Source: Acidobacteriota bacterium
GTDB lineage: Bacteria; Acidobacteriota; UBA6911
DNA: 64,000 nucleotides
Assembly: GCA_963664705.1 (NCBI GenBank)
Contig: OY761556.1
Location: 5,824,001 to 5,888,000 of the forward strand
Direction: 5' to 3'
Part shown: positions 43,613 through 64,000 of the stretch, piece after piece
Layout of the letters: each line of letters starts with the position of its first letter
How positions within the stretch are numbered: position 1 is the first letter of the stretch
Made by a program: the position numbers and the translations under genes
The notes under the pieces: model-generated
Databases searched by the model: none
What the model was told of the DNA's origin: nothing
Seen by the model: the letters and a program-made list of their open reading frames with translations, nothing else

Positions 43613-43617
43613 GCCTC

Positions 43618-43646: not shown

Positions 43647-43954
43647 GAGATAATCGGAACGAGAAAGAGGTATTTATTCCTAAAGCCATCGTGAACGAAT
43701 TAGTTTGCGGCCCATTATTGTAATTCACGAGATATCTGAAAAACTGTCAAGCCGGCCACCTGCATCAGAGACGCTATTGCATTTTGGCACAATCGTCTCT
43801 TTCGACTCGGTGGGAGTAATCGAACTTAATCTCCGCGGACACCAAGCTCCAGCAACGACCTGATTTCAACTGCAAGGCCCAGCTTTTGGGAACTTCTTTC
43901 TCTGAAAGGTGTCCATACGAAATATCGTCCCAATCATCGATTCTCGGAGGAACT

Positions 43955-45874
43955 ATGCCGCGCTGCGTCCTCGCTATTTTTCTCTTAGTGGCAACTGGTG
44001 GTGCACAAGATATCTCCCGAATGGACAAGGCGGTACAATCGGTTGTGGCAAACAAGCAGTTCATGGGATCCGTACTGGTGGCTCGAGGGGATCAGGTTCT
44101 TTTCAGCAAAGGCTATGGCTTCGCCAATCTCGAATGGAATATTCCGAACACTCCGGATACCAAATATCGGATCGGCTCCATGACCAAGCAATTCACAGCT
44201 GCGGCGATTCTTTTGCTTGAACAACAAGGCAAAATAAAGGTTGGAGACCCCATCAGGAAGTACCTGCCCGATGATCCGCCAACTTGGGACAAAATCACCA
44301 TCTACCACTTGCTGACCCACACCTCGGGAATTGTGGATCTTCTCAATACGCCTGGCATACAGAATATGATCCCGCTCCCGCAGACTCCGGAACAGCTGTT
44401 GGCTTTAGTGCGCGATAAGCCGCTACAATTCGAGCCCGGAACGAAATTTCTGTACAGCAGCTCCGGCTACAATCTTCTTGGCCGTTTGATAGAGAAGATC
44501 ACTGGTCAGCGCTATCAGGATTACATGCAGAAGAATATCTTCATGCCGCTTGGAATGAAAGACTCCGGGTACGACACAAACATTGACATCCTCCCAAAGC
44601 GGGCATCCGGCTACACGCCTGGCCCCAAAGGACCGGAGAATGCGCAATATGTTCACATGAGCAATACGTACTCAGCCGGTGGCTTATACTCTACTAGTGA
44701 AGACCTGCTGCGCTGGGAACAAGGTCTTTTTGGCGGGAAGATTCTATCCACGGAGTCTCTTTCAAAAATGACTACTCCGAATTTGAATGGATATGCATTC
44801 GGATTATATGTTGGAACGGCAAAGGGGCGCAGGCGCATCATACATGAAGGCGGAGTGCCCGGTTTTAACTCCTGCATGGTTTACTTTCCTGAAACTAAGG
44901 TCACGATCGCAGTTTTATCAAACATGTTCCGTCCTGAAGTTGCTGGAGAGATAGTTGCTCTGCTTTCAGATCTCGCCTACGGGGATAAAGTAATTCTCAC
45001 ATCGGAACTTAACGCAATTGCCGTCTCGCCAAAGATTCTATCGAGCTATGTTGGTACGTACAATTTTCCGTCAAGAGGCAACGTGAGAATTAGCCTGGAG
45101 AACGGAAATCTGCTTTTGAGGACCGGGCAGCTGATGGGGTATGTGAATACAACTGCACTGTCTGCCAGTTCCGAAACTTACTTTTTTTCGAAAGAAACGG
45201 GCATTCAGCTGGAATTCACCAAAGATAGAGGAACCACAACGCATATTGTCCAGCACCGGATTGGTGATGATGATCTCAAAGGTATGAGAGTCAGCGATAC
45301 CGTTTCAGAGCCACCACATGTTCCCCGTGACGTCCTTGAGCAATACGCAGGTGTCTACAAATTACCCCCGGGTTTTGAGTTAGTGTTCTCAGTTGAAAAC
45401 AATGAACTGATTCTCCATCGGACATGGCAATTCCTTCGATATCGGGCAGTGCCTGAGTCGGAGAGCAGGTTTTCTCTAGGGGAGTTGGATGACACATTTG
45501 AATTCATAAAGGATGCGGGCGGTACTGTAACGCATCTTATTCTTCGGAACGGCAATTCGGAAATTATAGCTCCCCGCACTCGTGAAATTGCCGAAGTCGA
45601 CGGTGCGTGGACTGGCAATGAACTATTTTATATTTTCAAGGCAGAAGGAAATACACTTGCTGGAAACTTTGCGTCGAAAGCAGGGGAAGGATGGATATCG
45701 GAGGGCAAGATTGATGGACAAAGGATTTCTTTCATCTTGAACATTGGGTCATCGGCCATTAGAACCGACGCCCGCCTCTCCGGCGATCTGATCACCATAA
45801 CCCAGACAAATGGTAACGGGACAAGCACATCTACAGTTCGCCGGGTTAGGCCAAAGATGACGACAATGCGCTAG
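43955..45874 (+). CDS. Serine hydrolase (AmpC-like) with C-terminal DUF3471-like repeats
   Basis: IGSMTKQF, LLTHTSG, YSSSGY, HEGGVPGF; repeats L..YVG.Y and LEQYAGVY. Confidence 0.88.
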   Translation: MPRCVLAIFLLVATGGAQDISRMDKAVQSVVANKQFMGSVLVARGDQVLFSKGYGFANLEWNIPNTPDTKYRIGSMTKQFTAAAILLLEQQGKIKVGDPIRKYLPDDPPTWDKITIYHLLTHTSGIVDLLNTPGIQNMIPLPQTPEQLLALVRDKPLQFEPGTKFLYSSSGYNLLGRLIEKITGQRYQDYMQKNIFMPLGMKDSGYDTNIDILPKRASGYTPGPKGPENAQYVHMSNTYSAGGLYSTSEDLLRWEQGLFGGKILSTESLSKMTTPNLNGYAFGLYVGTAKGRRRIIHEGGVPGFNSCMVYFPETKVTIAVLSNMFRPEVAGEIVALLSDLAYGDKVILTSELNAIAVSPKILSSYVGTYNFPSRGNVRISLENGNLLLRTGQLMGYVNTTALSASSETYFFSKETGIQLEFTKDRGTTTHIVQHRIGDDDLKGMRVSDTVSEPPHVPRDVLEQYAGVYKLPPGFELVFSVENNELILHRTWQFLRYRAVPESESRFSLGELDDTFEFIKDAGGTVTHLILRNGNSEIIAPRTREIAEVDGAWTGNELFYIFKAEGNTLAGNFASKAGEGWISEGKIDGQRISFILNIGSSAIRTDARLSGDLITITQTNGNGTSTSTVRRVRPKMTTMR

Positions 45875-46146
45875 CTCCTAATTATGCTGTTTTCTCTGAC
45901 GATGATCCGAACATAAGATAATTTATTATCAGTCCTATACGGCAACAAACCCGGACCATTTCATCCAAAACGGTCATCAAAGAAGAAAAAGGCAGGCGCA
46001 GGAATACAGTCCGAATGCAGCAATTTACCTTTTGGCGTTATCTCTCCGAACGCGACCTAGAACGATCATCCTGGCCGTTGCCATCCTCCTGAGGGTAGTG
46101 GTAGGCTCAGGAGGATTCCAATCTTATCTCTTGGGAGAAAGTTACA

Positions 46147-46812
46147 ATGCTTTTCTTCCGTGTCCACAAATGCTCAGGTTTCCAGCCAATCATTTGGGGA
46201 TGCCTAATAGTGGCCCTTCTGTGTTCTGCCTTTTTGCTGCAATCGGTGGCACAAACAGATAGAGATTCGACGTTTAAGCCATTTATTGCCGAAATCAAAC
46301 GGGGACAGATATTTCGTAGATCATTGACCCCGCAGATCAGCTTTGAAGTTAAACCGCTCGACGCTAAACATGATGGTCGGATAGGAGTACATATTTCTGT
46401 CCTTAACCGCAGGAATCCAAAAGGTTACAAATTCGTCGTACTCCCCAAGGTGGATAATGGTGGAGACGCTAATTGGGTTGGTATCGACGTAAGCAGGACG
46501 AAAGAAAGGCCAGGTGCAGATAGCTTGCGCTCTGCCCTTGACCACTATTCCGGTATTGGTCTTTGCGTAACCTATTTCACAGATAATTTAAGCCGTTCTG
46601 AGCTTGAAAATGTCCGTGGGGCTTGGGCGATGCTGCATCGCCGCGGAGGCAAAGAAGAAGAGTATCAGCAAGCCGATGAGGTATTAAACAGCCTCCACCG
46701 TGTAAGCGGGCTTTTTTCGGTACTGGAATACAAAATTGCCGATAATCCTTTGCGAATTGAGCATCTGAAATTTTCTTTTGATCCTTGCGATCCACGAACT
46801 TGTGATGAGTGA
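46147..46812 (+). CDS. Hypothetical secreted protein
   Basis: 221-aa ORF with a signal-like segment; start uncertain. Confidence 0.6.
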   Translation: MLFFRVHKCSGFQPIIWGCLIVALLCSAFLLQSVAQTDRDSTFKPFIAEIKRGQIFRRSLTPQISFEVKPLDAKHDGRIGVHISVLNRRNPKGYKFVVLPKVDNGGDANWVGIDVSRTKERPGADSLRSALDHYSGIGLCVTYFTDNLSRSELENVRGAWAMLHRRGGKEEEYQQADEVLNSLHRVSGLFSVLEYKIADNPLRIEHLKFSFDPCDPRTCDE

Positions 46813-47103
46813 AGCGAATTTAGGAAGATGATTGGGATGCTCCCCCTCTCGTTCTCCTTTGTTTTTTTGCAGTTAGCGCTGGGCAGGCGCAAGGGCAAAG
46901 GTACTCGACCAACACCGGGAACGTGGATAGGCGCAGAATGCAGTACTGATGCCGGATTTGACATTTTGGCGTAACTCCCCGCACCGCGACTTCGGGGGAA
47001 CCTGACTGGACGTGCCCGCCAAAGCGGTAAATATCAATACAATAATCGAAATCAGATTTGTCGAAATATTCCGCAACATCCTTGATGGAGTAAGAACGAT
47101 TGC

Positions 47104-47132
47104 TTGAATATAATACTATATAGTAATATCCT
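47104..47132 (+). promoter_or_regulatory. Promoter with MarR operator in spacer
   Basis: TTGAAT-N17-TATCCT enclosing the palindrome TACTATATAGTA (47114-47125). Confidence 0.6.
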
Positions 47133-47153
47133 ACATAGAAGGAGGAGCTTCAT

Positions 47154-47600
47154 CTGATAAAAAAAACGAACGGTGGCTTCTTGATTAGCAAGATAAAGCA
47201 AATCCAAGGCAGGGTTTTTGAAAAACTTCTCGCCGCCCACGGCATCGACCAATTCAACGGGGCGCAGGGAAGGATTCTCTTTGTGCTTTGGGAGGAGGAC
47301 GGCATCCCCATCCGCAGTCTCTCGGAGCGGACGGGCCTAGCCACCACGACCTTGACCAGTATGCTGGACCGCCTGGAGGCCTCAGGCCACATCGAGCGGA
47401 TCTTGGATCCGACCGACCGCCGCAAGATCCGGATCCGGCTCACGCAAAACGCACTGGGGCTGAAGGACGATTATCAAGCCGTATCCCGGCAAATGAACGG
47501 CATCTTTTACGAGGGCTTCACGGATTCTGAGATCAAGGTCTTTGAAGGCGCGCTCCGCCGAATTCTTGAAAACCTCACGGGAAAGGTAAAAACGCAATGA
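47154..47600 (+). CDS. MarR family regulator
   Basis: QGRILFVLW..LSERTGLATTTLTSMLDRLE..DPTDRR. The RBS points to a start at 47154/47157 rather than the TTG at 47181. Confidence 0.88.
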   Translation: MIKKTNGGFLISKIKQIQGRVFEKLLAAHGIDQFNGAQGRILFVLWEEDGIPIRSLSERTGLATTTLTSMLDRLEASGHIERILDPTDRRKIRIRLTQNALGLKDDYQAVSRQMNGIFYEGFTDSEIKVFEGALRRILENLTGKVKTQ

Positions 47601-48031: not shown

Positions 48032-48248
48032 ATTATACAATCCATTTATTTTATTCACTTCAGTAAGCATAAATCGGCGTAGCACGCACCGTATTGATGA
48101 CGGCAATTGACAAGTTGGCGGTATCTCCGCGAGCGCGACTTCTGGACAGTCATCGACTATGCTAGACCCATTAATGACTTTGGAAGGGAAATGAACTGGT
48201 CACTCCCGGAAGACAGCCGCTTAAAGCGCCATGCCGCGCTCAGCGGAA

Positions 48249-48794
48249 CTATCTCTTGGTGTACTTCTGTCGCCAATACTTGGGTGTGCCGCCATCGCTC
48301 GTGATCAAGCGCTGCTTGATGAGCCAGCGGCCGTCGCGCTTCACGAGCTTCGTGGAGTCTCGACCCTGCTCTTGGAACTGCGGCAGCTTTTCTATGCTTT
48401 CGTTGAGGACTTTCGTATAGATCAACGAACAGCTCGCCTCGTTGCCGTTGACGTCGATAAGCACATTCGTCACGAGCGTATGGACTGTGCCTTTGTGAGC
48501 TTCGCCCGTCTTCTCGGCGGTCAAGCTGTAGACTTTTTCGATCTCGTTGCGGCCCTTGTACACCATGCCATTGACGTCGAGGACGCCGTCTTCGGTGTAG
48601 TGCCGAGCCATTTTCTCGCCGCTCGTCTTACCGAGGTCGGCATAGTATCGAACCATCATGTCCTGGATCCGAATCTGGTCGAGCAGAGCTTGGTCGGTAG
48701 CGGGCTTGTCCTGGGCAAAGGTCGTGCCCGGCAGCAGAAACAGCAGAACGGCGGCGACGCCAACGATGCAATGAACGGCGATGCGCATCTTCAT
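48249..48794 (-). CDS. Secreted SnoaL/NTF2-like protein
   Basis: Signal peptide; IQDMMVRY, YTEDG, GRNEI, H..TN..IDVNG, LVKRDGRWLI. Confidence 0.8.
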   Translation of the reverse strand: MKMRIAVHCIVGVAAVLLFLLPGTTFAQDKPATDQALLDQIRIQDMMVRYYADLGKTSGEKMARHYTEDGVLDVNGMVYKGRNEIEKVYSLTAEKTGEAHKGTVHTLVTNVLIDVNGNEASCSLIYTKVLNESIEKLPQFQEQGRDSTKLVKRDGRWLIKQRLITSDGGTPKYWRQKYTKR

Positions 48795-49249
48795 GATATC
48801 TCCCTGGTGCTCGAAGTTCGTCGAAGGTTTCTTTGAGTTGCTCGAGGTTGTCAATCCTCGCCTCAACCGACGTATAAGTGGAATAGATGGCGTCTTTACG
48901 GTTCGCCATCCTTCCCCGGGTTCATCGAGCTTCCGATAAGGTTTCGTTTATGTCATCTGGTTCGGACCCTTCAAGGCAATAGACTTGATTTTAAAGCGGG
49001 ATTGGAGAAAAGAGATACTTAATTTCGAGAAACAAAAGCAAATTTACTTTTTCAAACCGAAATCCCTGCATAGGATCGGATTGCTTTCTACGGATCGAAG
49101 GGGCGACTCAGTACTGAAAATTTCTTGATCGGCGAAGGGGCCCAATCGCTCTTTTTCTCAATTATTCGTCTGCGCTTCTGCCAGGCGGCTTTCGGAATGC
49201 CTCGCATTCATTTGAATTCGCGGGCGAGTGTGTGATTCACTAAGATCAG

Positions 49250-49942
49250 GTGACGACAATGGATAAAGTTAAGGACCACTTTGAGAGTGAAGCACAGGAA
49301 TTCGAGCGGATCATTCTGGCGCTGATACCGCATTATTCAACCATGGTGCGGGCACTAGCTGAAGCAATTCCGTTTGGGAGAGACGATTCTATACGCGTCA
49401 TTGACCTGGGCTGTGGCACAGGGACGATCTCGGCACAGATTCTGGAGCTCTTTCCTAAGGCACAAATTACATGCCTCGATTTTGCTGAAAACATGATCGC
49501 GCATGCCCGGGCAAAGTTGGCTCGATATCCACACGTCAAATATTTAACGGCCGATTTCCGTGCCTTCGATTGGTGCGGGCAATTTGACGTGGTGATCTCA
49601 TCCCTGGCTCTGCACCATATAGTCACGAATGAGGAAAAGCAAAAGTTTTATTGCCGCATATACGAGAGCCTCAGCTCAGGCGGCGTCTTCTACAATGCCG
49701 ATGTGGTGTTGGCCTCCAGCGGCTATTTGCAGAACTTCTATATGCGTGAGTGGCGACGTTTCATGTCGCTGAGAGTGCCCCATGAGGAAATCGAGGGCAA
49801 GTGGATTCCCAAGTACCACGAAGAGGATAATCCGGCGAAATTGCTTGATCATTTTGATTGGATGAAGGACGCCGGATTTTCTGATATAGACGTGGTCTGG
49901 AAGTATTTCAATTTTGCGGTTTATGGCGGGGTCCGCCGATAA
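49250..49942 (+). CDS. Class I SAM-dependent methyltransferase (CmoA-like)
   Basis: IDLGCGTG, FDVVISSLALHH, GGVFYNAD. Confidence 0.88.
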   Translation: MTTMDKVKDHFESEAQEFERIILALIPHYSTMVRALAEAIPFGRDDSIRVIDLGCGTGTISAQILELFPKAQITCLDFAENMIAHARAKLARYPHVKYLTADFRAFDWCGQFDVVISSLALHHIVTNEEKQKFYCRIYESLSSGGVFYNADVVLASSGYLQNFYMREWRRFMSLRVPHEEIEGKWIPKYHEEDNPAKLLDHFDWMKDAGFSDIDVVWKYFNFAVYGGVRR

Positions 49943-50121
49943 CCCGGCATTGCAAACTGGATTGACATTGTGGCGCAATGTCGCGAATGGGACTTCTTAG
50001 GAGTTATCTATTCAATGGTAAATATAAATAGGCTCTGACAGCCGTCGATCAATAATGCAGATTAGAAACAAAATGCAAGACGCACTTTTGCCCTGAGTAC
50101 CTGAGAGCTATTCCCTTTCCA

Positions 50122-51693
50122 TTAGCGTGAAACCTCAAAAGCACCGATATCACACCTACTGGATCGACTAAGCCCGCGCTGGTCGGTAGAGATAAGCACA
50201 CCATCATGATCTGTGCAGCCTGCGGGATTGCCGCCATTTATTGCGGGACTGGATGGCAGCAAGGCATGAGTGCAAGTATCACCACCATTTTGTCTAAGCG
50301 ATCCCAGTTTAGGGTTAACCTTTGATATGTCTCCTGGTCCGGCTAGGCCACAGCTTTCGTCAGAATCTAGATTATAGCCTCCTGAAACCAATGGAGCGTC
50401 ACAGTTTGCGCCAGAAGAACTGTCGCTTAGTATTGTGTTCTTAATTGTAATCACTGTGGATTTGTTGACATCCAAAGTCTTTCCGCGGGGCAAGAGGACG
50501 GGGCGATAGATTGCCCCACCTGAACCAATCGCTCGGCTCTTTCCTCGTATCATTCCGCCCGGTGAACCCCCCTGTGCCGCATTGCCGTAATACGTGCAGT
50601 TGCTTATCCATGCATCATTCACAAAATAGCTTGCCCCGCCCTGTCCATTACCACCATCTCCCGCACAATCAGCATAAACGGGAGCGTACATGTAATTTCC
50701 AGAGACACAAACACCCCCTGCGCCGCCTTTAGCCCGGTTCTGTGAAAAAGTGCTGTTGACTAAACTGACCGCAGCACTGGCGTACAGCGCTCCTCCAATC
50801 CCATCGCCTCCTTTTTGCAACTGGTCTCTTCCTGCTGCTCCTATAGCTGCGTTCTTATAGAAAGTGCAATTTGAAACAGCGCCTGCACCGGCTAAATACA
50901 GTGCGCCTCCCATCCCATTGCCCCCGGGGCCCCTTGGAATTCCATTTTGCACGGTATCACCGGGATTCCCTCCGATTGCCTGATTTTCTGCAAACGTGCT
51001 GTCCGTCAATACAATAGACCCACTGCTGAATATTGCCCCGCCGAACGCAGTGCCGCCAACTCCGGGTGCTACCGGCATTAAAGTGTGGTCGGGCCATGCG
51101 CCAAATCCGCCTGATCCTCCAATGGCGCGGTTAGTTGAAAATGTGCTGTTGATAATGGTTACAATGCCTTTATCGTTATATAGTCCGCCACCCTTAGCCG
51201 GACCGCCCGCTTGTCCGCTTACGCTTAGTTGTTGAGTGCCGCTTGCTCCCTGGGTTCCGATTGTATAGCCCTTCGTGACAATGAGGTTTCTCAATATAAA
51301 ATGAACTTCGGGGTTAACATAGAATACGCGTACGGCATCGTTGCCGCTGATCGTAATAGATTTGGTTCCCGGGCCACTGATAGCTATATTCTTGATAATG
51401 TTCAGGGTGCTGCTCAGAGTAATTGTGCCGACTAATCCGGGTGCGAAATCAATGACATCGTCGGAGACGGCTGCCCCAAGCGCTTCGCGCAATGAGCAGT
51501 CAGAATCGCATGCCCCGTCATTGGTATCAGCCAGCTTGGTTACAGTGTGTGGAGTTGGCGATGCCAGTGTTGAAAAAGACAATCGAAATAAGAACACGGC
51601 CAAGACAACCGCGCGTAAAAACTGTCGTTCGATTATTGACGCAATCGAACGACCCTGTTTATTGTCAAGGCGTCTGAGCATTTTGTCGATCAT
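50122..51693 (-). CDS. CSLREA / choice-of-anchor Q secreted Gly-rich protein
   Basis: DCSLREA, GGAI/GGGL repeats, NGG.T.THALLPSSPAI, DQRG..CDIGAFE; AGGAGG RBS. Confidence 0.85.
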   Translation of the reverse strand: MIDKMLRRLDNKQGRSIASIIERQFLRAVVLAVFLFRLSFSTLASPTPHTVTKLADTNDGACDSDCSLREALGAAVSDDVIDFAPGLVGTITLSSTLNIIKNIAISGPGTKSITISGNDAVRVFYVNPEVHFILRNLIVTKGYTIGTQGASGTQQLSVSGQAGGPAKGGGLYNDKGIVTIINSTFSTNRAIGGSGGFGAWPDHTLMPVAPGVGGTAFGGAIFSSGSIVLTDSTFAENQAIGGNPGDTVQNGIPRGPGGNGMGGALYLAGAGAVSNCTFYKNAAIGAAGRDQLQKGGDGIGGALYASAAVSLVNSTFSQNRAKGGAGGVCVSGNYMYAPVYADCAGDGGNGQGGASYFVNDAWISNCTYYGNAAQGGSPGGMIRGKSRAIGSGGAIYRPVLLPRGKTLDVNKSTVITIKNTILSDSSSGANCDAPLVSGGYNLDSDESCGLAGPGDISKVNPKLGSLRQNGGDTCTHALLPSSPAINGGNPAGCTDHDGVLISTDQRGLSRSSRCDIGAFEVSR

Positions 51694-52560
51694 GAGAAGT
51701 CCTCCTCGACATCGAACACCAGTGCCATGCAGTTGGAGCATTCTAGAAGTTGCTTGATTATAACGATATACAATCAAAAGGAGCAACGGTGATTAGGAGA
51801 GACTCCAGCATTTAGAAATCCACTGATTACTCGTGGCAACAACTCGAATTACAATGCTGTTATCCTTAGGATCGGCGGAAAATCTTCATAGGATAATTGT
51901 TCGCCTGCACAAAGGATGGTGGTCTGGCAGTTGAGCGGGAAGCTATAAATAGTCAGAGCAGGCATAATCAAAGATAATGCTCTCAATGTTCGAACTGAGT
52001 GGACTCTTTTCAGGGCCACAATCAAACTCCTAGCGGGATACAGATTCCTCGGTATGAGAGCGCGGTGAACATTCGTAAGTCCAATCGAGTCTAAGGCAAT
52101 CATGTATTGAAAAATTCAATACGGATCCTTTATGTCATAGGGAGAAAATGAGGGCTTTGATTGCGCTGCATCGGGAGAAAGAAGCTTTATCGCATTGCGT
52201 AATTGCTGAAAAGATAACATCAGATCTTATAAAACAATATAAGAAGAAGCTTGATAGCGGCCCAAACGAACTGACCAAGTCTCGTTTATGTCTGGTTAGC
52301 GCTGCTAGGATGTATTTGTTCCGAGTCTGTCCGCCAAAGTAGACAATATTTATCTGACTCTGATGTGATTTACATTTTGGCGTTATCTCCCAGATTTGGA
52401 CATCAGGACAATTGCGATTACTTTTCCCTGGTAATATGCTGACTTTTAAGTGGCTGAGGAGATTCTCTTGAAGGAAAAGCCTTTTCAAATGCTATTCTGC
52501 GGCTGAAGAGTCTCTTTAGAATCAGATGTCAATTGAAGCGAAACGAGAGTGGAAAAAAAC

Positions 52561-53493: not shown

Positions 53494-54930
53494 CTAATCA
53501 ATGACCCGTCGAGTTCTTTCTATCGACCAAAGAATAATCGCGAAGGCAAAAAGATAGAATCCAACGGCCGGGAGAATCAGATCGGAACCCCGCATGTGCC
53601 ATGGTGACTGCCCGGTCCACCTTTCCCAACGCAGGTAAAGGACCGTCAGGATGAGAGGGAATTGGATTAACATGATCGCGTAGAACAGCTGATTTGCCTT
53701 TTCCTGTTTCTGGAGAAGAACCTGTCTGCTAAGGAGGAAGGCAGTTAGTACAATTGCGAAAATGGAAGAAGCAGCCATTGAGTCATGCGCTTTCGCTGCA
53801 TATACGGAAAGGTAGGCAAATGGATTGCCGAAGGTTGAGCCCAATAGCCATGCATATACATTCCACTTGAATCCCTTCGAATTCGGATCACCAAATGGCC
53901 GTTTGGTATCAGCCTTCTCTTGAACTTGCCCTTGCTCATTTTGAATCTTCCGACGGAGGCGTTTTGTCAAAATAATGCCGGCCGCAAGTACCAAAAGGCC
54001 GCCGACGAATTGAATAAAAAAGATGCGTTCATCCTTGCCGAACCAATGATAGGCCGCCAATCCACTGACAACAATAAAGAGGAATGCCGCCTCTGTAAGT
54101 ATCCAAAGCTTTCTCTCGCGCAGTGAACGGGCGCTGTTTATGGTGCCTATCATGGAAAGGAATCCGGCAAGCGTTGCAAGAATCGGCGTCAGCATGCCGG
54201 CAAGGAAGCCCAACAAAGAACCGGACTTTGCCGCTGCGGAACCCTTCGCGGCTGCAACACCGATCGCCGACGTTCCCGTCGGTAAAGTCAGTATCGGCAA
54301 TCCGGCCAAAACAGCCAATGTAAATCGCTTTCCGGGAACAGACTGCCTGAGTGCAGTTTCAACAAAAGATTCTACCTCCATCTTCAGGAGTTTGCGCCCG
54401 CGTGATAGTCGCTGCTTCACCACCTCCTCCGATAGCTCTAGCGACCCCGCCACACTTTCGATGGATTTCCCTTCGCGATAAAACAATATGATCGGTTCGC
54501 GATAAATTTGCGGGATGTGCTCCAGGGAACGCCAAAGAATGGATTCTTCTTCGTTGCTGATGGCGTAGTCCTCGGGCAACGCTTCCGCCGAAGGAAGATA
54601 GGCCGCCTCATCGAGCGGTTCGGAGTGATATGCCGGTTCCTGCTTCCGGCTTCGCACGGCATCGGCGATAATATTGCGTGCGATGCTGCACAGCCAGGAC
54701 CGGAGTTTCTCCGGGTCCCGCAGCGTTTGCAATCCCTTCCACGCTGCAATGAATGTTTCCTGTGCAAGATCTTCACTTTGGCTCAAACTGCCGGTAGCGC
54801 TATAGGCCAACGAACATACCAGCGACTGATAGCGCGTAACAATTTGAGCAAAGGCATCCCGCTGGCCGGCTACGGCTTGAGCTGTCAGTTCGGAATCCGT
54901 GGAGTTTGAATCTTTCAAGATATTGACCAT
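53494..54930 (-). CDS. ECF sigma factor with fused multi-pass membrane C-terminus
   Basis: SEDLAQETF..WLCSIARN (region 2), VKQRLSRGR (region 4), then about 6-7 hydrophobic helices. Confidence 0.88.
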   Translation of the reverse strand: MVNILKDSNSTDSELTAQAVAGQRDAFAQIVTRYQSLVCSLAYSATGSLSQSEDLAQETFIAAWKGLQTLRDPEKLRSWLCSIARNIIADAVRSRKQEPAYHSEPLDEAAYLPSAEALPEDYAISNEEESILWRSLEHIPQIYREPIILFYREGKSIESVAGSLELSEEVVKQRLSRGRKLLKMEVESFVETALRQSVPGKRFTLAVLAGLPILTLPTGTSAIGVAAAKGSAAAKSGSLLGFLAGMLTPILATLAGFLSMIGTINSARSLRERKLWILTEAAFLFIVVSGLAAYHWFGKDERIFFIQFVGGLLVLAAGIILTKRLRRKIQNEQGQVQEKADTKRPFGDPNSKGFKWNVYAWLLGSTFGNPFAYLSVYAAKAHDSMAASSIFAIVLTAFLLSRQVLLQKQEKANQLFYAIMLIQFPLILTVLYLRWERWTGQSPWHMRGSDLILPAVGFYLFAFAIILWSIERTRRVID

Positions 54931-55042: not shown

Positions 55043-55293
55043 GGAAATTCTTTGGTGGATTCAATAATTGATGCAGGAGATTCGAACTTTCCTGCCCTTA
55101 TAAACCAGTATCGCAGCCCTTGTCGCAGGATTCGGTCAACGCCGCGAGGATCCGTAATTGCGGAGTATTCTGGTAGGAAAAAGGGGAATTGCCATTTTGG
55201 CGCAATGTCCCTGATTCGCAGGACCTATCTGGTCCATGATGGAATGCCGCCGTGTTTCCAGCACAAATCTGATGGCTCAAAGGAGACGCTATC

Positions 55294-55456
55294 GTGAAGA
55301 CATTGGCTCTGATGCTGGCGCTATTTTCATACTCCAGTCTTGCCCAAGAATCATCCCAATACCGTGCCTGCAATCAGAAGGCAAAGACTCCGGCAGAGAT
55401 GAGCATTTGTGCCAGCAGCGAAGGCTGATGCGCGTCTGAACGAAATCAAGGATTAG
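55294..55456 (+). pseudogene. LprI/DUF1311 lysozyme-inhibitor remnant
   Basis: AGGAG RBS, GTG start, MKTLALMLALF..ACNQKAKTPAEMSICASSE, then out-of-frame ADARLNE. Confidence 0.6.
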
Positions 55457-55525
55457 GCTGCAGGATTTGGGCTGCCGGTATCAGGGAATTTCTGGAAAAT
55501 CAAACTAATGAATGGCCTCACTAGA

Positions 55526-56536
55526 TCAGTTTTCGGTCGGCTTTTTCTCAATGTGATCGATGATGAGCTTCTCCACGGGCGCTTTTCGCGATTCCAGCTT
55601 CAAGCCCAGTTTCTCGACTGCTCGAAAGACTACCCCACTGGAGGGATCTGAGGCGGCCATCCCCGCATCCGTGGCGGGAGCAGGTGTGGGTGGTGCGCCA
55701 AAGGGGTTGGACATCGAGCCGAGTGCCGGATTCCGAGGCAGACTCCGCATGGTGTCCTTCATAAGTGCCTCAAATGGAACCTCCATTGTCACGTGGTAAA
55801 AACCCTTCAATCTGGTTTGATTAATGACTGGCCGATCCGGCACCATTCCCGCAAGCGTCTCTTCGGCGAAAGCATCCATGGTAACCCTGACTAAATCCAT
55901 CCGCATGCTGCCATTTGCGCCGTATTTGGTGCGCACGGTGCCCTCGGGCCCGCCAGTTCTAACTGACGTTCCATCAGGTTCCCGGCTGGTAGTGATCTGC
56001 TGTCCATCCCTTCTGTAGAGCGCCGTTTCGCTTGCGCTACCACTACTGTTCAATTCTGGGGACGTAGAAGGAGCCGCGGGCTCAACGGCCTTCTGCAACT
56101 TCGGGCCATTCTTGGCCACAACAAGCGCATATACCGGCTGGTCTCTTTTTTCTCTGTGAATTGCTATCTTGAACCTGTCCGCCAGAAGCGACTGAAGCAT
56201 CTGTGGAATCTGATCCTTCGTTGCACCATCAGGCATTTGTGCCTGAATTTCAAACCGCTCGGAATCCAGCCAATCAGGCCCGGCAATTTGAAGTGGAGTT
56301 TTGAGACGATATGCAGTTGCGACCCAATCAATTAGCCGCAGAGTGCCATCGACTCGATTGCCCACAATTTTCATCCCGGGTAGTCGCGGTGTTCCAGGCG
56401 GGATCTCCCTAACCGATGCAACCACAAAGGCTGGGTGGCGATCAGTTGTGGCTTGAGAGGCAATGGGCATCGCTGTAGCACCAATTGCCGGAAGGAGCGT
56501 AGCTAAGAAAATGCCATAGATAACAGATGTCTTCAT
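55526..56536 (-). CDS. TIGR03435/DUF3738 family acidobacterial protein
   Basis: FVVASVR, GPDWLDSERFEI, MLQSLLADRF, RPVINQT, KLGLKLESRKAPVE..IDHIEK.PTEN. Confidence 0.9.
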   Translation of the reverse strand: MKTSVIYGIFLATLLPAIGATAMPIASQATTDRHPAFVVASVREIPPGTPRLPGMKIVGNRVDGTLRLIDWVATAYRLKTPLQIAGPDWLDSERFEIQAQMPDGATKDQIPQMLQSLLADRFKIAIHREKRDQPVYALVVAKNGPKLQKAVEPAAPSTSPELNSSGSASETALYRRDGQQITTSREPDGTSVRTGGPEGTVRTKYGANGSMRMDLVRVTMDAFAEETLAGMVPDRPVINQTRLKGFYHVTMEVPFEALMKDTMRSLPRNPALGSMSNPFGAPPTPAPATDAGMAASDPSSGVVFRAVEKLGLKLESRKAPVEKLIIDHIEKKPTEN

Positions 56537-56803
56537 TGCACCCTCGTTTCTTGTCAGACGCAGCGATTTGCAAACCATTGGCTTAGATAAAGCAAAATCG
56601 TCGAGCTTTCATTATCATAGATGCAAGAAGCGATGGATTAGTCTATGCAATGTGCTAAAAACTAAAAATAATCGCTGAATGACATTATCTGGAAAGGGCA
56701 ATCCCACCCAGGATCCAAACCGCTTTTTATTGTAGGATCTAAGGAGCGCCAGTAATCGCAAGCTGGCACTGCTGCCCCGAGACGGCGAACGAAGTGGATT
56801 GAA

Positions 56804-57526
56804 CTATGAGGCTGCAGCTGCTTTTCGCTTGGCCGTATAGTTCACGACTACGCTGCCCAGAATTCCGGCGCCGAGAAGGAAGTAGAAATCGCGCACCCGC
56901 AGGGTGATGGCAAAAACCGTGGAAGCCGAAGCGAACCCCCACATCATGCATTCGGTGACGAAGCCCTGCAGCCAGCGTGGGGGCACATTCCCCTGCGGAA
57001 GACGGGGCGTCAATGCAGGCAACAGCCGTGGGACCAAGTTCACATACTGGCGGTAAGAATCGCCCTGCGTGCCCAGCAGCCCGGCTTCTTCCCGCTCTAT
57101 CAACCGCAGCAGGAACAGCGCGTTTCCGATAATCAGCACAACGGCACCGACCCGGCTTGCCATAAAAGCAAAGCCGATAGCGAGCAGAATATTCCCCAGG
57201 TACAGCGGATTGCGGCAGTAGCGGTATGGACCATCCGCGATCAGGCGGTTGGTCTGCATTCCTGGCTGGTGAACGACTATGCCACCAAGATAAGCTGAAG
57301 CCCAGCTCCGCAGCAACGCGTTGAGAATGGTCAATGCCGCGCCGATCGCAAACGCCCAGTGAAAGACCGTGTCCGAAGCCCACTGATTGCCGTGACGCTG
57401 TGCGATCCAGTGCAGCACGCTGGCAACACTGTTCCGGTCGTGGAAGGCATAGAGAAAGAAGCTGAAATTATAAATGACGGCAATCAACCACCAGCGATTG
57501 CGGAATTCAAACTCGGTTGCCTTCAT
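56804..57526 (-). CDS. Isoprenylcysteine carboxyl methyltransferase family membrane protein
   Basis: LIADGPYRYCRNPLYLG, REE, Y...VPRLLP. Confidence 0.85.
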   Translation of the reverse strand: MKATEFEFRNRWWLIAVIYNFSFFLYAFHDRNSVASVLHWIAQRHGNQWASDTVFHWAFAIGAALTILNALLRSWASAYLGGIVVHQPGMQTNRLIADGPYRYCRNPLYLGNILLAIGFAFMASRVGAVVLIIGNALFLLRLIEREEAGLLGTQGDSYRQYVNLVPRLLPALTPRLPQGNVPPRWLQGFVTECMMWGFASASTVFAITLRVRDFYFLLGAGILGSVVVNYTAKRKAAAAS

Positions 57527-57792
57527 CGCGAGTTTCCTTTGATTGCATAATGGGATTGAATATGGCGACTCCATACCGTGTTCCCATCATCGCAGATAGT
57601 CGCAACGCCCTCAAGTTCCAATTCTCACATCGGACTTCATCGCTTCGGCAAGCGCCATCTCCGCCTCGCCTGCCAACCCCTGGGGTGCGTCTCTGCTCAC
57701 GGGAGGCGGGGGGTAACTTCTCCGATGGCGATTTATGGAAAACCATGACAAGGAGCAGTTATAGTTAACAGCATTACCGGAGCTGCCATAGG

Positions 57793-58295
57793 ATGAATTC
57801 ATCTCGCATACTTCGCACAATTCTTGTCTTGCTAATTCTGATTTGCACGGCAGGGTGCGATCAGGTTACAAAGCATATTGCCCGATCCGAGCTTTGTAAA
57901 ACGGGTCCGGTCATGCTGCCTGGTCGATTCATCGAGTTCACACTTGCCGATAACCCAGGTGCCTTTCTTAGCCTGGGCGCCTCATTGCCCCAAATTGCTC
58001 GAGTTGTCCTTACAATCTTTTTAGGTGTTGGCCTTGCATTCTGTTCGTTTTTCTCATTCGAACGTCCGGACTGCAATGGATCTCCTTTTTAGGGCTGGCG
58101 TTTACATTTTCTGGAGGAATGAGCAATCTCTTTGACCGTCTGGTTCGCCATGGGTTCGTCACAGATTTTATGGTTGTGCAGGTCGGTCCATTTCACACGG
58201 GCATTTTTAACGCCGCAGACTTCAACATTCTGCTCGGTATGCTTATGTTCTTTATGTCCACGGTGCTGACTCGGCAAAAGTCGAAGGTTAACTAA
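57793..58295 (+). pseudogene. lspA: Signal peptidase II, frameshifted
   Basis: DQVTK and NPGAFLS are in frame 1. GGMSNLFDR, VTDF and GIFNAAD are in the shifted frame. One base is missing near 58041. Confidence 0.85.
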
Positions 58296-58413
58296 GGGTG
58301 TTATCCGGTTCCTTTTATATGCGATCGAAAGGACATTGGGCTAAAATCCTCTCTTTAGATCGGGCAAAAGCAACAATTCGTGGCTGCGCCCATAGTATCG
58401 CAAGGTAGCGAGA

Positions 58414-59052
58414 ATGCAAGGATCTGAGACCATATACCTTATTCGTCACGCTCAGAGCATGCCGCGCAAATCCGAATTGTTTTCACAATGGAATCTGAGC
58501 GCGCTAGGTATGCAGCAGGCTGCTGCATTGGCAGCGTTGCTCGCACCGTTGGGAATTACGCGCATTTACTCCAGTCCTTTTATTCGAAGCATGGAAACCG
58601 CTAAGCCACTGAGCCATAGGATTGGAGCGGATGTACAGATTGTCGATGGTCTTCGGGAGCGACAGCCGCTGATTGACAAGGGACTGCCGCTCGGTGCGGA
58701 ATGGTATCAGGCATGGTGCCGCGCATGGGAAGATTTCAATTTCGCTCCGCCCGGCTGCGAGTCATCGTTTGCGGCGCAGGAGAGAGTTGTTAAGGCTATT
58801 GAAGATATCGCGAGGAAGAATACAGACGTAACGGCTGTATTCACGCACGGACATGTCATGGCTCTATTCCTTAACGCAGTCACGAGGGGTATGTTTGATC
58901 GGAAAGACGCGGAGGCGCTGACCAATCCTGATGTGATGAGGATCGAGTGGAAAGATCCGGCGTTTATATGGGACCAGCATTTTCGGCTCCCAGGACTTGA
59001 GAAAATCACGACGCAGCACGAGGAGACGCCTCTAGAGAAAACCACATCCTGA
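58414..59052 (+). CDS. Histidine phosphatase family protein
   Basis: LIRHAQS, YSSPFIRSMETA, LRE, FTHG. Confidence 0.88.
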   Translation: MQGSETIYLIRHAQSMPRKSELFSQWNLSALGMQQAAALAALLAPLGITRIYSSPFIRSMETAKPLSHRIGADVQIVDGLRERQPLIDKGLPLGAEWYQAWCRAWEDFNFAPPGCESSFAAQERVVKAIEDIARKNTDVTAVFTHGHVMALFLNAVTRGMFDRKDAEALTNPDVMRIEWKDPAFIWDQHFRLPGLEKITTQHEETPLEKTTS

Positions 59053-59365
59053 ATAGTCCAGGCGATGACAGCAATAGGCGTTTTTTGTTTTGCCCCCCCC
59101 AAACGGATGTTGTCTCGACTGTTAGGAGAAACCAATCATGATGAACCGCGGCCCCGGAGTCGTGGTCCCTAAGCGGCAAGCCTGGAAATGTCATTGCATA
59201 GAATGCAAATATTGAAGGCGGCAATTTACATGTTCGCGTTATCTCCCCCAAGGCGACTTCGCACAAGCTTGCTAGTTCGAATCGTGCAGATGCCTCCACA
59301 GCATTACCATCATGTTGAGTTAGAAAGCTGAAAAAGGGGATGTTTTGCAGCTGAAACCTTGATAT

Positions 59366-59830: not shown

Positions 59831-60149
59831 TCGAAAGATCCATGGATTCGGTCCAGCCCTGCTGGCGCAGTCACGACATAGATAATCAAGACACCTCATG
59901 GCCAAAATGTCAGACATGAAAAGGCTTATTCAAATCAGAGATCGGTCGCAATGCCGTAAGGAACGGGAAACGGCAGATATCTGTCGGGAAGCTTCACAAC
60001 CGATGACCAGCACTGACGGGCAATTAACATTTTGGCGTTATCTCCCAGAACTTCAGGACAGCATCGTTCGTTTCATCGAATGCCAGAGCGGAAAGAGAAC
60101 ACTATTATGCTCGGTTTTCAGTTATCACTTAGAAAACATAGGGGAAGCA

Positions 60150-60479
60150 ATGTCTCTGTGGATTCGGCATAGGAACAAATCAGGCAGGCATTTGTGGTTG
60201 ATCGATACGCATCCGGTTTTGCTGTTATTTGTGATAGCTGCATTAATGATTGCCGCAGTAAGGTATGCGGAATTATTTGCGAAGACGACGCTGGTCATCA
60301 TGGGGAGCGGCCTAATATGTCTTACTGTCGCTAAAGTTTCGCTTTTTAGACGAGGGATTTGGATCTCGTAGAGGTCTCATTATATGACGAGAATGAATGC
60401 CGTGATCTATAAAACGGGATACGCATTGTTGGGCAGTGGCGCGGTCCTCCTATTGCTGGTGAGCTTCACGATAAAATAG
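60150..60479 (+). pseudogene. Small membrane protein with in-frame TAG
   Basis: GGGGA RBS and ATG 60150. After TAG 60369-60371 the frame continues for 35 codons with a further TM helix (YKTGYALLGSGAVLLLLV). Confidence 0.55.
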
Positions 60480-60581
60480 ATTGTGATAATCGCAAAAGGC
60501 GCGCTGTAGCAATTTGGCCGCAGAGCAACTTCCTCGAATCAGACTGCAGGACAATTGCATTCGGATTTCGGGGAAACTGGA

Positions 60582-60844
60582 CTTCGAGTGGAACTCGAAC
60601 AAGAATCCGATGGGCGTTGGATTGCGGAAGTAACCGAATTGCCCGGTGTACTTGCTTACGGCGAAACTCCTGGAGATGCGCGTGCAAAAGCGCAGGCCCT
60701 CGCACTCCGAGTGGTTGCCGATCGCCTCGAACACGGCGAGGCTGGCCGGACTTTGTTTTCGCATTCCATGATGGAGAGGAAATCGGTCCACACATGCTGG
60801 CACGAATTGCCAAAGAGACAGGTCTTCATTCTAAGGATCTCTAA
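60582..60844 (+). pseudogene. hicB: HicB-HicA toxin-antitoxin remnant fused by internal deletion
   Basis: ELEQESDGRWIAEV.ELPGVLAYGET (HicB) joins GWPDFVFAFHDGEEIGPHMLARIAK (HicA C-terminal half) at about 60740. Confidence 0.75.
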
Positions 60845-60909
60845 AACGCACGCTGAAAAATTGTGAAATCATACGAGCCTAATTTCAAAGCTGCCCAGGC
60901 GCAGTTTCA

Positions 60910-62283
60910 TTACAAGGCGCTGACAGCCTCTTTACGTGAACCGATTTCCTCCTGCATTTGAAGAACCTGCTTGTCCTCCAACCGGTATCCAAAGTAGAAG
61001 ACGATTGCTGCAATACAGCACGTAGCCGCCGGGATGATCGTTATCAGGGATTTGATACCGCTGACCACGCCCGGAGTCGGGGCAGTGTTGGCCACAAATC
61101 CTATTGCCACCAGGCCAACACTCAAAAGAACGCTTCTCAGGAATACGCCCACTTTGATAGGCAAATTGATCAAAGCCATGGTAAAGGCTCGTATGTTTTT
61201 CCCTGTCTTCCATTCTCCATAAATGACCGTATCTGAAAACAGCGCCGTGATCATTGATCCTGAGACTGAGAAAGCCATCATGGCCAGCGAGATCATAAGG
61301 GTAAAACCCCAGGAGGTTCCGCTCGTAAGCCTGGCAAGCAAGAACAGGAATGCGGCAACAAGCAGAAATATCCAATAGCAGCCCCGTTTGCCGATTCTGA
61401 TGCCTATCCAGCTTGCCACCAAGGTCCCGGCAAACCGTCCGACGCTGATGATCAGTATAAACATGGAAACAAAGGATGGATTGTTCTGCACATACGTGAA
61501 GTAATAGATCGCAAGCGCTGTAACCATAAAAAGGCTGGTGAGGTTGAACGTCTGAGCAATAATCAGACCCAGCAGCGGAGGGTTTTTAAATACCAGCCCG
61601 ACAATTTCACGGAGCGAAGGTCCTCTGGCTCCGGAAACGGCGGGTGATTCGTCGTACGGGTCTTTGCCAGCCGTGAGCCGGTAAATGTACAGATACCCCG
61701 CGACGGTGGCTATTCCGTAGATGGCCGTTGCGAGGGAAAACCCGGTTATCCGATCAGTCAGTTTGCCGAAATAAATAATGAGCGGCATTCCGGTGACCGA
61801 AAAGAGCAGTCCGGCAGCGGCCATGCCCTGAGCGCGACTGCTGGACAGAATCGTGCGCTCATCCGGCAACCGGCTCAGTCTGCCGATCATGGAACCGTTT
61901 GCCGCCGCCACCACATTCCAGAGGAGATGGCTCGTCACGAATCCAAACATAATGATTGCCACCGCAGTCACGTCGGTGCCTATTTTGGTAAACTGCAGCA
62001 CCGCCAGGGGAAAAAACATTAGCGGCCCGACCAGGAACCACGACCGGTATTTGCCGCCGAACCTGAGGGCAATTTTTTGCAGTATGATTCCCCCGGTCAG
62101 GGCACAGACTATGTCTCCCAAGCTGGTGATGATAAGAATGTTGCCGACGATCGCGAGCGAAAATGCAGCATAATCGGTTAGGAATGCTGTAAAAAAATAA
62201 AGCTCCATGCTGGTCAGCATGACGAAAAACATGTCGGCAATTCCATAAGTGTAAAGCAACGGCTTGGCTAATCGTTCAGCCAT
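60910..62283 (-). CDS. MFS transporter, GPH (MelB-like) family
   Basis: GKYRSW, KNPPL, DTVIYGEWKTG; about 12 TM segments; AAGGAG RBS. Confidence 0.88.
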   Translation of the reverse strand: MAERLAKPLLYTYGIADMFFVMLTSMELYFFTAFLTDYAAFSLAIVGNILIITSLGDIVCALTGGIILQKIALRFGGKYRSWFLVGPLMFFPLAVLQFTKIGTDVTAVAIIMFGFVTSHLLWNVVAAANGSMIGRLSRLPDERTILSSSRAQGMAAAGLLFSVTGMPLIIYFGKLTDRITGFSLATAIYGIATVAGYLYIYRLTAGKDPYDESPAVSGARGPSLREIVGLVFKNPPLLGLIIAQTFNLTSLFMVTALAIYYFTYVQNNPSFVSMFILIISVGRFAGTLVASWIGIRIGKRGCYWIFLLVAAFLFLLARLTSGTSWGFTLMISLAMMAFSVSGSMITALFSDTVIYGEWKTGKNIRAFTMALINLPIKVGVFLRSVLLSVGLVAIGFVANTAPTPGVVSGIKSLITIIPAATCCIAAIVFYFGYRLEDKQVLQMQEEIGSRKEAVSAL

Positions 62284-62762
62284 TTACAGACACTCCTTTT
62301 CAAAATGGTGCTGTTTGAAAGATCAACCATCATTATTCATAGCTGTACTCCCGAGGACAACATGATTGATCGTGACTTGGCGGCAGTGGTTGCTGTCAAA
62401 GCCTCTGGAGGAGGTCCAGAAATCCTACTTGGCAGCAAGTAACCCAAAGGATGTCGAAGCCCATCTGGGCAAGCATTTCGATCAGATGAAATACCATGAT
62501 TTCCTAGTCTCCCACATGCTGTCATTCGATTTGCTTCGTAAGTCTGTTATGGATGATTTCGTCAAACGGTCGAGATAGATTGTTAAGGAATAAGTAATGT
62601 CACTGGAAACGCTAAAGTCAGCCGCGAGAACAGCATTGGCTCCTTTATTTAGCAATTTAGCGCATTTCTCAGATCGGGACTACAGGACAATTGCATTCGG
62701 ACCTTTGGGGAGTTGCGGTAAAACCAATGCCAGGAAATTCTTTTGAGGGCATACTAGAAGGC

Positions 62763-63782
62763 ATGAAAATTAGACGCTTTTTTTTGCTGCTGGCGTGCAT
62801 CTTTGGGCTTGTTCCCTTATTCGCACAACAATCACCCCGCGTCGGCTTTGAGGTAAAGGAACCAAAGCTACTTAAAACGGTTGCAATAGAATATCCGGAG
62901 GAGGCAAAGATTCTCGGATTGCAAGGTCCCGTAACTATTAAATTACTGATTAATAAAAAGGGACAAGTAGAAGACATCGATCCAGTGTTCTCTATTCCCT
63001 TGTTACTCGAACCCACAGTTGCTGCGGCAAAACACTTTCAGTTTGCGCCCACGGTTCAGAATGGTAAACCTATTGCAGTAACAGCGATCATGACAGTGCA
63101 CTTCGTTCTACGTCAAACGCCAGGGTTTCTGAAATTTCAGGATGGAAGTGGAATGCCGGGTGGATTATTGGTTGGATTAAGCCAGAAGGGATTGTCTCCC
63201 ATAATCGCCAGAATCGATCAGGATGGAAATTACATATCAGTTAGGGGGGAACGGAGCAACGCAAATCAACCATTGAGAATCATTCCAGCCCCACACATGG
63301 CGCTTTCCTTGCTGGAAGAAAGACTCAAAACAGCTCAGGATCGTTTCTCGCCTCCACACGAGCTATGGAGTCCTGAGTTTCGATTCCCGGACGGCAATAT
63401 ATCGTACTTTATGCAAAGGAAAGGGCTTCAGCAGCTTTATCATTCCACAATACTGGTAACGAATGGTTCTCATCTCATTCAACTTGCAGGTAACGATCCC
63501 GACGTGAAGCCTCCGCAGCTAGACCTCGACTTAACGAAACTTGGAGAGCAAGCCTTCGATCTTACATATCAAGGCGGATCTGCCTATTTCTGCACGTTGT
63601 TTGTTGATAAAGACGGCTCTATTCTCGGATTAGAACACCAGGGTTATCCCCTGGATCCTATTTATAAAGCACTTGCCAATGCGCATGTCATTAAGCCAGG
63701 TATGCGGCACGGAATTCCTGTACCGACTGCCGTTTTGGTGGCTATTCAAGTTCCTATTGTTTGGGCCAAGATCCAACACTAA
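62763..63782 (+). CDS. Secreted TonB C-terminal domain protein
   Basis: Signal peptide; EYPEEAK..LQGPV..LINKKGQV..FAPTVQNGKP; a second degenerate TonB_C-like end PGMRHGIPV. Confidence 0.78.
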   Translation: MKIRRFFLLLACIFGLVPLFAQQSPRVGFEVKEPKLLKTVAIEYPEEAKILGLQGPVTIKLLINKKGQVEDIDPVFSIPLLLEPTVAAAKHFQFAPTVQNGKPIAVTAIMTVHFVLRQTPGFLKFQDGSGMPGGLLVGLSQKGLSPIIARIDQDGNYISVRGERSNANQPLRIIPAPHMALSLLEERLKTAQDRFSPPHELWSPEFRFPDGNISYFMQRKGLQQLYHSTILVTNGSHLIQLAGNDPDVKPPQLDLDLTKLGEQAFDLTYQGGSAYFCTLFVDKDGSILGLEHQGYPLDPIYKALANAHVIKPGMRHGIPVPTAVLVAIQVPIVWAKIQH

Positions 63783-64000
63783 AAGTGGCAATTAACAATT
63801 TGGCGTTATCTCCTACAACTTCGGGGGATTGTCGAATATTTCACATCTTCGAGTAGTGCGCATTTCGAACAAGTAAGCCTGCAAAAGGCTGTGGGATCAG
63901 CAATCCCGGCAGCCCTGTTCTTTCCGCGTACGGGCGTGTTCAACTTTCAGTCCGACTGGCTCAATATCAACCTCGGCTTAGATGATGTTTGAAAATAGTG

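Follow-up and report, generated by a model that had tools for sequence, protein, structure and literature searches.

How did the unrelated genes that fill the last 20 kb of a 64-kb stretch of an Acidobacteriota genome come to stand between copies of one 28-bp repeat, and is the arrangement an integron? The stretch, hereafter the window, is G000:C1:5824001-5888000, in which G000 is the 6.89-Mb single-contig assembly of the source genome (G codes denote genomes, L codes metagenome or other fetched loci, and X codes sequencing runs). We conclude, with a probability of about 0.6, that the gene blocks of the window form an array, now largely decayed, whose 28-bp dif-like border sites have served for exchange between genomes, likely by a dedicated family of Xer-like recombinases that was not found in the source genome. 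The anatomy of the site, its two opposed classes, the exchange at a fixed triplet and the orientation of the sites around the recombinase gene were directly observed.

A first-pass annotation of the window had quoted eleven copies of the repeat, and all eleven strings were present on the + strand where it had placed them. A position weight matrix was built from the ten listed copies, and leave-one-out scores of 20.4-41.8 bits were obtained for 9 of the 10. Copy 62644 scored 1.1 bits because its register was one off, 62643 being the fitting start. The further copy at 43771 is degenerate and gave no match of at least 9 bits in the matrix scan. Across the genome, the matrix yielded 32 matches of at least 20 bits, compared to 0, 0, 1, 0, and 0 with permuted matrices. 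Thirty of the 32 fell into five clusters, mostly with a single orientation per run, at 2.91-2.94 Mb (7 sites), 5.02-5.03 Mb (2), 5.61-5.63 Mb (8), 5.87-5.90 Mb (11, the window array), and 6.71 Mb (2). The repeat is thus not spread evenly over the genome in both orientations, the distribution that had been named as speaking against a cassette array. Except for the window cluster, every cluster and every single match has a tRNA gene within about 30 kb. The motif had not been noticed in the island at 1-32 kb, and indeed window positions 1-43000 contained no core site scoring 12 or more. At the other end, the array continues for about 12 kb beyond the window. Two sites that had not been listed, at 57716 and 60528, lack the flank that the quoted copies share. 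A scan of genome contigs with the exact pattern returned a single locus.

Anatomy and distribution of the site

The 28-mer had been taken for a recombination site with a 10-8-10 layout. This layout was ruled out, since conservation and breakpoints centred 21-49 bp into the motif. The repeat does mark the points of exchange, but the 28-mer itself is offset, and the crossover lies 10 bp beyond its 3' end. From 206 unique sites, a dif-like core was derived that starts at position 22 of the motif, 21 bp further on, and consists of an 11-bp left arm (RYYTCCNMSAW), a 6-bp spacer (NSSGAC), and an 11-bp right arm (TT(C/A)N1-2GGGAGT or GGACAAT). The arms are roughly mirror images of each other. The first three bases of the spacer are variable and the last three are fixed, as GAC or CGT. 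In this set, whose selection favours GAC, the G, A, and C were kept in 204, 204, and 201 of the 206 sites. When only the arms were used for searching, the spacers comprised 156 GAC, 12 reverse-read GTC, and 46 others, 30 of which ended in CGT or TGT. A core model was then trained on 170 sites from other genomes and applied to the source genome, where, without the tail bonus, it detected 34 sites of at least 19 bits; on one strand, the permuted models found 0, 0, and 3. At L030 1541, L037 1577, and L154 6417, the spacer between the same arms ends in AAC, which makes a minor third class.

Other readings of the repeat and its flank were tried and rejected. The flank is not the N-terminus of a minus-strand protein (the alignment contains single-base gaps), and its reading as a promoter was given up after inspection revealed no consistent -10 element. 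A hairpin was dropped as well, because a folding signal and strong complementary covariation were absent; for single-stranded DNA over 60 sites, the mean folding z was -0.42 (top strand) and -0.27 (bottom strand) against a simple shuffle. Boxes of the attC pattern (RYYYAAC ... GTTRRRY) were found in 0 of 13 window sites and in 1 of 231 sites overall, compared to 3 of 2000 random stretches. Nor is the motif the chromosomal dif, which is separate and lies at the terminus (G000 2036985-2037012), near the skew maximum and 2.5 kb from xerD; its XerD arm we take to be Bacillus-like.

A single motif in one orientation had been described in the window. We found a second class, which has the opposite orientation; its arms are the same, and its spacer ends in CGT. 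Adjacent GAC/CGT pairs were opposed in 82 of 85 cases, 52 of them face to face and 30 back to back. An opposed CGT site was present 45-115 bp upstream of 51 of 234 GAC sites, with a mode at 85-89 bp (controls: 2 of 234 and 0 of 226). The conserved flank, which occurs in 36 of 92 sites, ends at the position of the CGT site; therefore, the 28-mer lies inside a linker that is bounded by two outward left arms. Such linkers of about 85 bp carry the two outward-facing left arms, and the cargo blocks carry the right arms. The array is closed beyond the window by two CGT sites that are directed back towards it, at G000 5899708 and 5900603. Among adjacent GAC pairs, 134 of 151 were co-oriented, 12 divergent, and 5 convergent, and 116 GAC/GAC neighbours were co-oriented without a detected site between them. 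The median unit length was 1.2 kb, and cargo genes were oriented like the sites in 68 cases and opposite to them in 34.

The pattern of the 28-mer followed by the downstream GAC occurred in 16 of 29 other genomes of the same genus and in 0 of 21 other genomes of the family. It was also detected in 26 metagenome loci, several of which are multi-site arrays, and gave 0 matches in viral contigs. The 3' half alone is present in other genera, again in arrays, for example as six co-oriented sites in G056. The 28-mer is therefore a genus-level flank, and the common unit lies further to the right. A strict pattern matched 2 of 301 genomes across the phylum; it missed the source genome itself, so this result is uninformative about absence.

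Exchange at the triplet and the recombinase family

Homology between loci repeatedly starts or stops at the sites, and breakpoints at the sites were what the first-pass annotation had asked for. Common blocks start precisely at GAC|TT. One of them is the 48140 unit of the window, which is present in G017 with the same GAC|TTC start and a different left arm; the junction of a wetland contig with the window sequence falls at 48136. For 15 pairs with only downstream DNA in common (10 copies of one element and 5 cargo blocks), identity reached 0.93-1.0 over positions 39-52, and the variable positions 28-35 gave 0.27-0.60, against a background of 0.41-0.57. These pairs keep only the last three spacer bases, not an identical or near-identical 6-bp spacer. 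Conversely, in 21 pairs with only upstream DNA in common, identity was raised to the left of position 28 and had fallen to background by position 43. CGT sites exchange blocks too, at CGT|TT, as in L014 versus G000 5890208 and in L054 versus L057. Positions 28-35 are retained in a duplicate that is 99% identical. The same blocks occur in different islands and genomes beside new neighbours. Contigs of run X1, which may be the source sample, tile positions 43700-63699 with zero differences, and therefore the array is not an assembly artefact; run X5 gave only patchy, near-identical pieces of the array sequence.

The array had been attributed to a recombinase outside the window, and a tyrosine recombinase is indeed the likely driver; genes of one such family lie at array centres in relatives. 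The candidate, P0001, is a 324-amino-acid Xer-like tyrosine recombinase from which the metagenome array L026 diverges. Its catalytic motif was intact by inspection, and it scored below all NCBIfam cut-offs, with XerC as the nearest family. Its family numbers at least 7,983 sequence clusters, for which integrase or XerD is the sole annotation, and members were detected in 18 of 50 further genomes of the taxonomic family and in 5 of 150 genomes sampled from the phylum. Within the genus, the motif was present in 8 of 8 genomes with P0001 and in 8 of 21 without it, though these genomes are kin and not independent.

The sites are ordered around this gene. In loci fetched mostly by means of P0001, 26 of 29 sites point away from it, and when only the nearest site per side was counted at 26 recombinase loci, 25 of 28 GAC sites did so; in relatives, GAC sites point away on both sides. 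In G017 the gene is followed by 7 co-oriented sites, and several copies of the gene have a site 131-134 bp ahead of the start codon. The gene was found at 6 of 12 points from which arrays diverge, as against 2 co-oriented units. The divergence point of the 5.62-Mb array of the source genome contains an open reading frame (ORF) that by eye resembles the gene after the recombinase in G058. On plasmid pACIX905 of the cultured Granulicella tundricola, both site classes surround a 62% identical recombinase, WP_013573308.1, as one back-to-back GAC/CGT pair and two more sites (0 in three shuffles). In G144, one palindromic GAC site lies 146 bp past the recombinase gene. Four viral recombinase loci contained no convincing sites.

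We propose that one recombinase of the P0001 family would bind both arms and cut between the triplet and the right arm. Because only a 3-bp match would be needed, sites would recombine within a class and not across classes. Two co-oriented sites of the same class could thus recombine to excise or insert a circle of cargo plus linker, and insertion of circles would build runs that extend outward from the recombinase gene. The lower strand would be cut after AA and three bases would be swapped, a geometry that is general tyrosine-recombinase chemistry. As a guess, the first exchange might be resolved by replication, as it is in integrons and CTX phage.

Mobile elements have also inserted at the crossover position, and thereby confirm it. 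The first, 3.47 kb long and with inverted ends, encodes two tyrosine recombinases and contains two small ORFs. Four full copies sit at the GAC crossover (G000 2926841-2930284, 5024300-5027742, 5618149-5621577, and 5622486-5625914), as two pairs that are 99.7% identical, and a 250-bp derivative sits in a CGT site. Relatives of the element were found in 7 of 50 other genomes of the family and its protein in 2 of 29 of the same genus; possibly, it is an undescribed RIT-like type. The second kind combines a recombinase with an IS91-family transposase. GAC sites are occupied by 7 of the 17 such elements whose left end is resolved, and by 7 of 10 if only close copies are counted, compared to 0 of 495 random GAC contexts that score as high; others sit in CGT sites. 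The IS91-linked elements (L019, L051, L044, and L186-L214) begin with TTGAAC after the GAC or CGT triplet. The triplet of the target recurs at the far end in every case checked, which fits a 3-bp homology rule and a 3-bp duplication alike. Both kinds also occur outside sites. In L051, an internal transposase fragment, capped by a long palindrome, is inserted in a site.

Weighing the explanations

Several results weigh against exchange by a dedicated recombinase. No gene of the P0001 family was found anywhere in the source assembly, where the best tblastn match was XerC, at 30%; the first-pass annotation had suggested looking for the enzyme beyond 64 kb. At 5 of 26 recombinase loci there was no site on either side, a gene or remnant was present at only 3 of 8 divergence points that had been found by the motif, and several homologues outside the family (G167, G166, G220, G145, L131, L133, and Acidisarcina pACPOL2) had no sites. 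Most window sites are without a recognisable CGT partner (2 of 12 have one at 8 bits, 45959-45987 and 59162-59189). Positions 28-35 often differ even between close upstream blocks, differences for which a single fixed crossover does not account. No excised circles or empty sites were seen; joints in X1 have sides of 24-36 bp and fit other site copies. An empty insertion site was not found among the 5 relatives searched, in which the flank to the left of the array is absent. Lastly, because the two-recombinase element has recently inserted at the sites, as its 99.7% identical copies attest, other enzymes can act there.

We also considered other explanations. The sites could be of the xrs or pdif kind and be acted on by the host XerC, with or without XerD, the P0001 gene being a frequent passenger in a module bounded by left arms. 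The source genome has 27 tyrosine-recombinase matches, with XerC and XerD above their cut-offs, and its arrays and recent insertions exist without P0001. The 11-6-11 geometry agrees with this explanation, and the left arms resemble the XerC arm of the source genome's dif, mostly at 5-7 of 11 positions (this arm scores 7.5 bits on the left-arm matrix; the median site, 14.2). Moreover, the arrangement of modules back to back and face to face is reminiscent of C and D modules (PMC13141974), and the convergence of three unrelated elements with recombinase genes on the sites parallels that of IS1202-family elements on xrs (10.1101/2022.12.17.520857). A XerD arm is lacking, however: the right arms of 205 sites match that of dif at a mode of 5 and a maximum of 8 of 11 positions, and the dif arm scores 2.0 bits compared to a site median of 9.3. 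The arms are also mirror-like, only three spacer bases are fixed, whereas identical or near-identical spacers are needed in pdif reactions (PMC13141974), and the sites point away from the P0001 gene. On balance, we regard action by the host enzymes as unlikely.

The blocks could instead be non-autonomous passengers, moved by the recombinases of the two-recombinase or the IS91-linked element. The insertions described above, in both site classes and with the triplet of the target at the far ends of the IS91-linked elements, favour this explanation, and the two-recombinase element is the only candidate present in the source genome. Yet both elements have ends of their own, unlike the cargo arms, and both occur outside sites; the two-recombinase protein is present in 2 of 29 genomes of the genus compared to 16 with the motif, and neither element was seen where arrays diverge. 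Thus, such mobilization appears quite improbable. A shufflon-like inversion system around the recombinase gene, with the co-oriented runs as by-products, is very improbable: in the genus, inverted GAC sites often flank the gene on both sides and would allow inversion, but the presence of the same blocks beside new neighbours in different islands and genomes needs transfer, and in the window array 13 sites are co-oriented and none of the GAC class is inverted. Least credible of all is a dispersed MITE/REP-like or regulatory element without a role in recombination, for although the linker of about 85 bp is a small repeated unit (36 of 92 flanks) and the flank contains a TTGACA-like hexamer, the sites are clustered and oriented, breakpoints are exact to the base, and cargo genes lie in both orientations.

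Exchange by a dedicated recombinase can be compared with the known cassette systems. Integrons are recognised by IntI, attI, and attC. The present arrays resemble integrons and integrase-less cassette clusters (CALINs) in that unrelated accessory genes form co-oriented arrays that persist without the recombinase. They differ by the absence of IntI, attC boxes, and a hairpin, by a double-stranded palindromic core, by arrays on both sides of the recombinase, by two site classes with linkers, and by cargo in both orientations. No match in the source genome exceeded the TIGR02249 cut-off for integron integrases (265 bits); the best, at 87.6, was XerD, and P0001 scored 41. An integron-like accretion array with a site other than attC had been proposed for the window: a clustered array of non-attC recombination sites is what we found, whereas ordered accretion, with the newest unit next to the platform, was not shown. 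Two further likenesses are that the recombinase gene adjoins a site directed away from it and that the crossover has a fixed triplet (IntI insertion: PMC8138268).

With the dif modules and xrs cassettes of Acinetobacter (pdif, host XerC/XerD), the arrays share 11-6-11 sites that bound gene modules, like arms facing inward, shuffling between replicons, and insertion elements that home on the sites (PMC13141974; 10.1101/2022.12.17.520857). In contrast to dif modules, the sites described here have no XerD arm, mirror-like arms, and two fixed 3-bp spacer classes rather than matched 6-bp spacers (PMC13141974), and strict alternation seems to be replaced by long co-oriented runs, in chromosomal islands and with a separate recombinase gene at array centres. 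The inserted elements are tenants of the array. They resemble RIT-like and IS91-family elements, with several recombinase genes and terminal inverted repeats or with a recombinase and a Y2 transposase; the former has two recombinase genes instead of the three of RIT-like elements, and the latter inserts after a GAC or CGT triplet, whereas CTTG/GTTC tetranucleotides dominate for IS91 (PMC8138268, PMC13181058).

Integrons and Acinetobacter dif modules are the established site-specific routes for stocking and shuffling gene cassettes. The system described here fails defining tests of both, yet exchanges blocks between genomes with base-exact borders in a major phylum of soil and sediment. Our search of the accessible literature found no description of such a system. 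Whether it represents a third independent bacterial gene-cassette system, with a dedicated and highly abundant Xer-like family, palindromic sites, a 3-bp identity code (GAC/CGT), and arrays that grow outward on both sides of the gene, across Acidobacteriota and parasitised by at least two mobile elements, we consider evenly balanced. Because the sites are short and the two classes, with their 3-bp rule, are apparently orthogonal, the system is directly testable, and a cultured host is available with G. tundricola and its plasmid pACIX905. If true, the hypervariable islands of Acidobacteriota would be partly explained and a new tool for recombination gained.

The array in the window

The features of the array are compiled in Table 1. 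Its left edge lies downstream of two cobalamin riboswitches and a btuB-like gene. That the cargo consists of unrelated genes was borne out by Pfam and NCBIfam, which recovered the serine hydrolase, the MarR and pyridoxamine-oxidase-like pair, SnoaL, two methyltransferases, the ECF sigma factor, lspA, the phosphatase, MFS, and TonB. The toxin-antitoxin call, presumably a HicB/HicA-like pair, had no match in either database. The MarR and pyridoxamine-oxidase-like pair has a 91% identical copy in another array (G000 5611013-5611919), and the 260 bp upstream of the 52385 core share 86% identity with the flank of another site, at G000 2930899, and the similarity stops just beyond the core.

Table 1. 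Sites, linkers, and cargo of the array, in window coordinates
Positions	Strand	Feature	Basis
43790..43817	+	First GAC-class site, degenerate, left arm short; left array edge	core scan
43886..45874	+	Cargo: beta-lactamase-family serine hydrolase with DUF3471	profile match
45959..45987	-	CGT-class site, decayed, 8.2 bits; left linker edge	
45970..46056	.	Linker between back-to-back CGT and GAC sites; includes the 28-mer copy at 46019	
46040..46067	+	GAC-class core with damaged right arm; crossover placed after 46056	
46974..47001	+	GAC-class core with damaged left arm, 15.5 bits	
47181..48031	+	Cargo: MarR and pyridoxamine-oxidase-like pair	profile match
48123..48150	+	GAC-class core preceding the 48140 unit	
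48249..49942	.	Cargo: SnoaL-like gene (-) and methyltransferase (+)	profile match
49978..50004	+	GAC-class core, left arm one base short	
50122..51786	-	Cargo: CSLREA / choice-of-anchor Q protein	profile match
52385..52412	+	GAC-class core	
53494..54930	-	Cargo: ECF sigma factor with membrane extension	profile match
55205..55232	+	Decayed site that has lost GAC	
55526..57574	-	Cargo: TIGR03435-family gene and isoprenylcysteine-methyltransferase-like gene	profile match
57716..57743	+	Core without the flank, spacer ending GAT	
57793..59052	+	Cargo: frameshifted lspA and histidine-phosphatase-family gene	profile match
59162..59189	-	CGT-class site, decayed, 8.2 bits; left linker edge	
59241..59268	+	GAC-class core, best preserved in the window, 30.3 bits	
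60040..60062	+	Core with 5-bp spacer deletion	
60528..60555	+	Core without the flank	
60910..62283	-	Cargo: MFS sugar-transporter family	profile match
62664..62691	+	GAC-class core (28-mer copy 62644, register 62643)	
62691..63782	+	Cargo: TonB C-terminal-domain protein	profile match
63808..63830	+	Core with 5-bp spacer deletion	

Many units had been called decayed, and most window sites are indeed damaged. With the tail bonus, seven score 19 bits or more. A 5-bp spacer deletion affects two, a missing base one, and the loss of GAC another, and two are weak or degenerate; lspA is split across reading frames. A strict intactness pattern was passed by 3 of the 15 sites of the window array, by 7 of 13 in the 2.93-Mb array, and by 6 of 7 beside the recombinase in G017. 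Arrays without a recombinase in the fetched stretch may be intact too, as in L047 (5 of 5 sites). The same 5-bp spacer deletion occurs in three sites (window 60040 and 63808, and G000 5894128) and may reflect a misregistered exchange at AAC instead of GAC. From the 63808 site, the array runs on to G000 5900603, where the CGT-class sites face back, and this continuation includes as cargo an ORF that on inspection resembles tyrosyl-tRNA synthetase (G000 5895444-5896601).

Further observations concern the rest of the window and the genome. The Rfam scan of the window detected two cobalamin riboswitches only, which stand in tandem directly left of the array (43153-43623, - strand), upstream of a btuB-like receptor gene and a cobQ-like gene. 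An 80-bp piece at 39389-39469 is 99% identical to G000 2938228-2938307, the end of a helix-turn-helix (HTH) gene in the 2.93-Mb array, and is also present in G024 and G064. The island at 1-30700 encodes many secreted hypothetical proteins of one repeated family, which occurs also as cargo between sites in L028, L042, L056, and L063. Finally, a dispersed repeat family of about 220 bp, unrelated to the sites, is present at G000 4126054-4126457 and in more than 100 other places.

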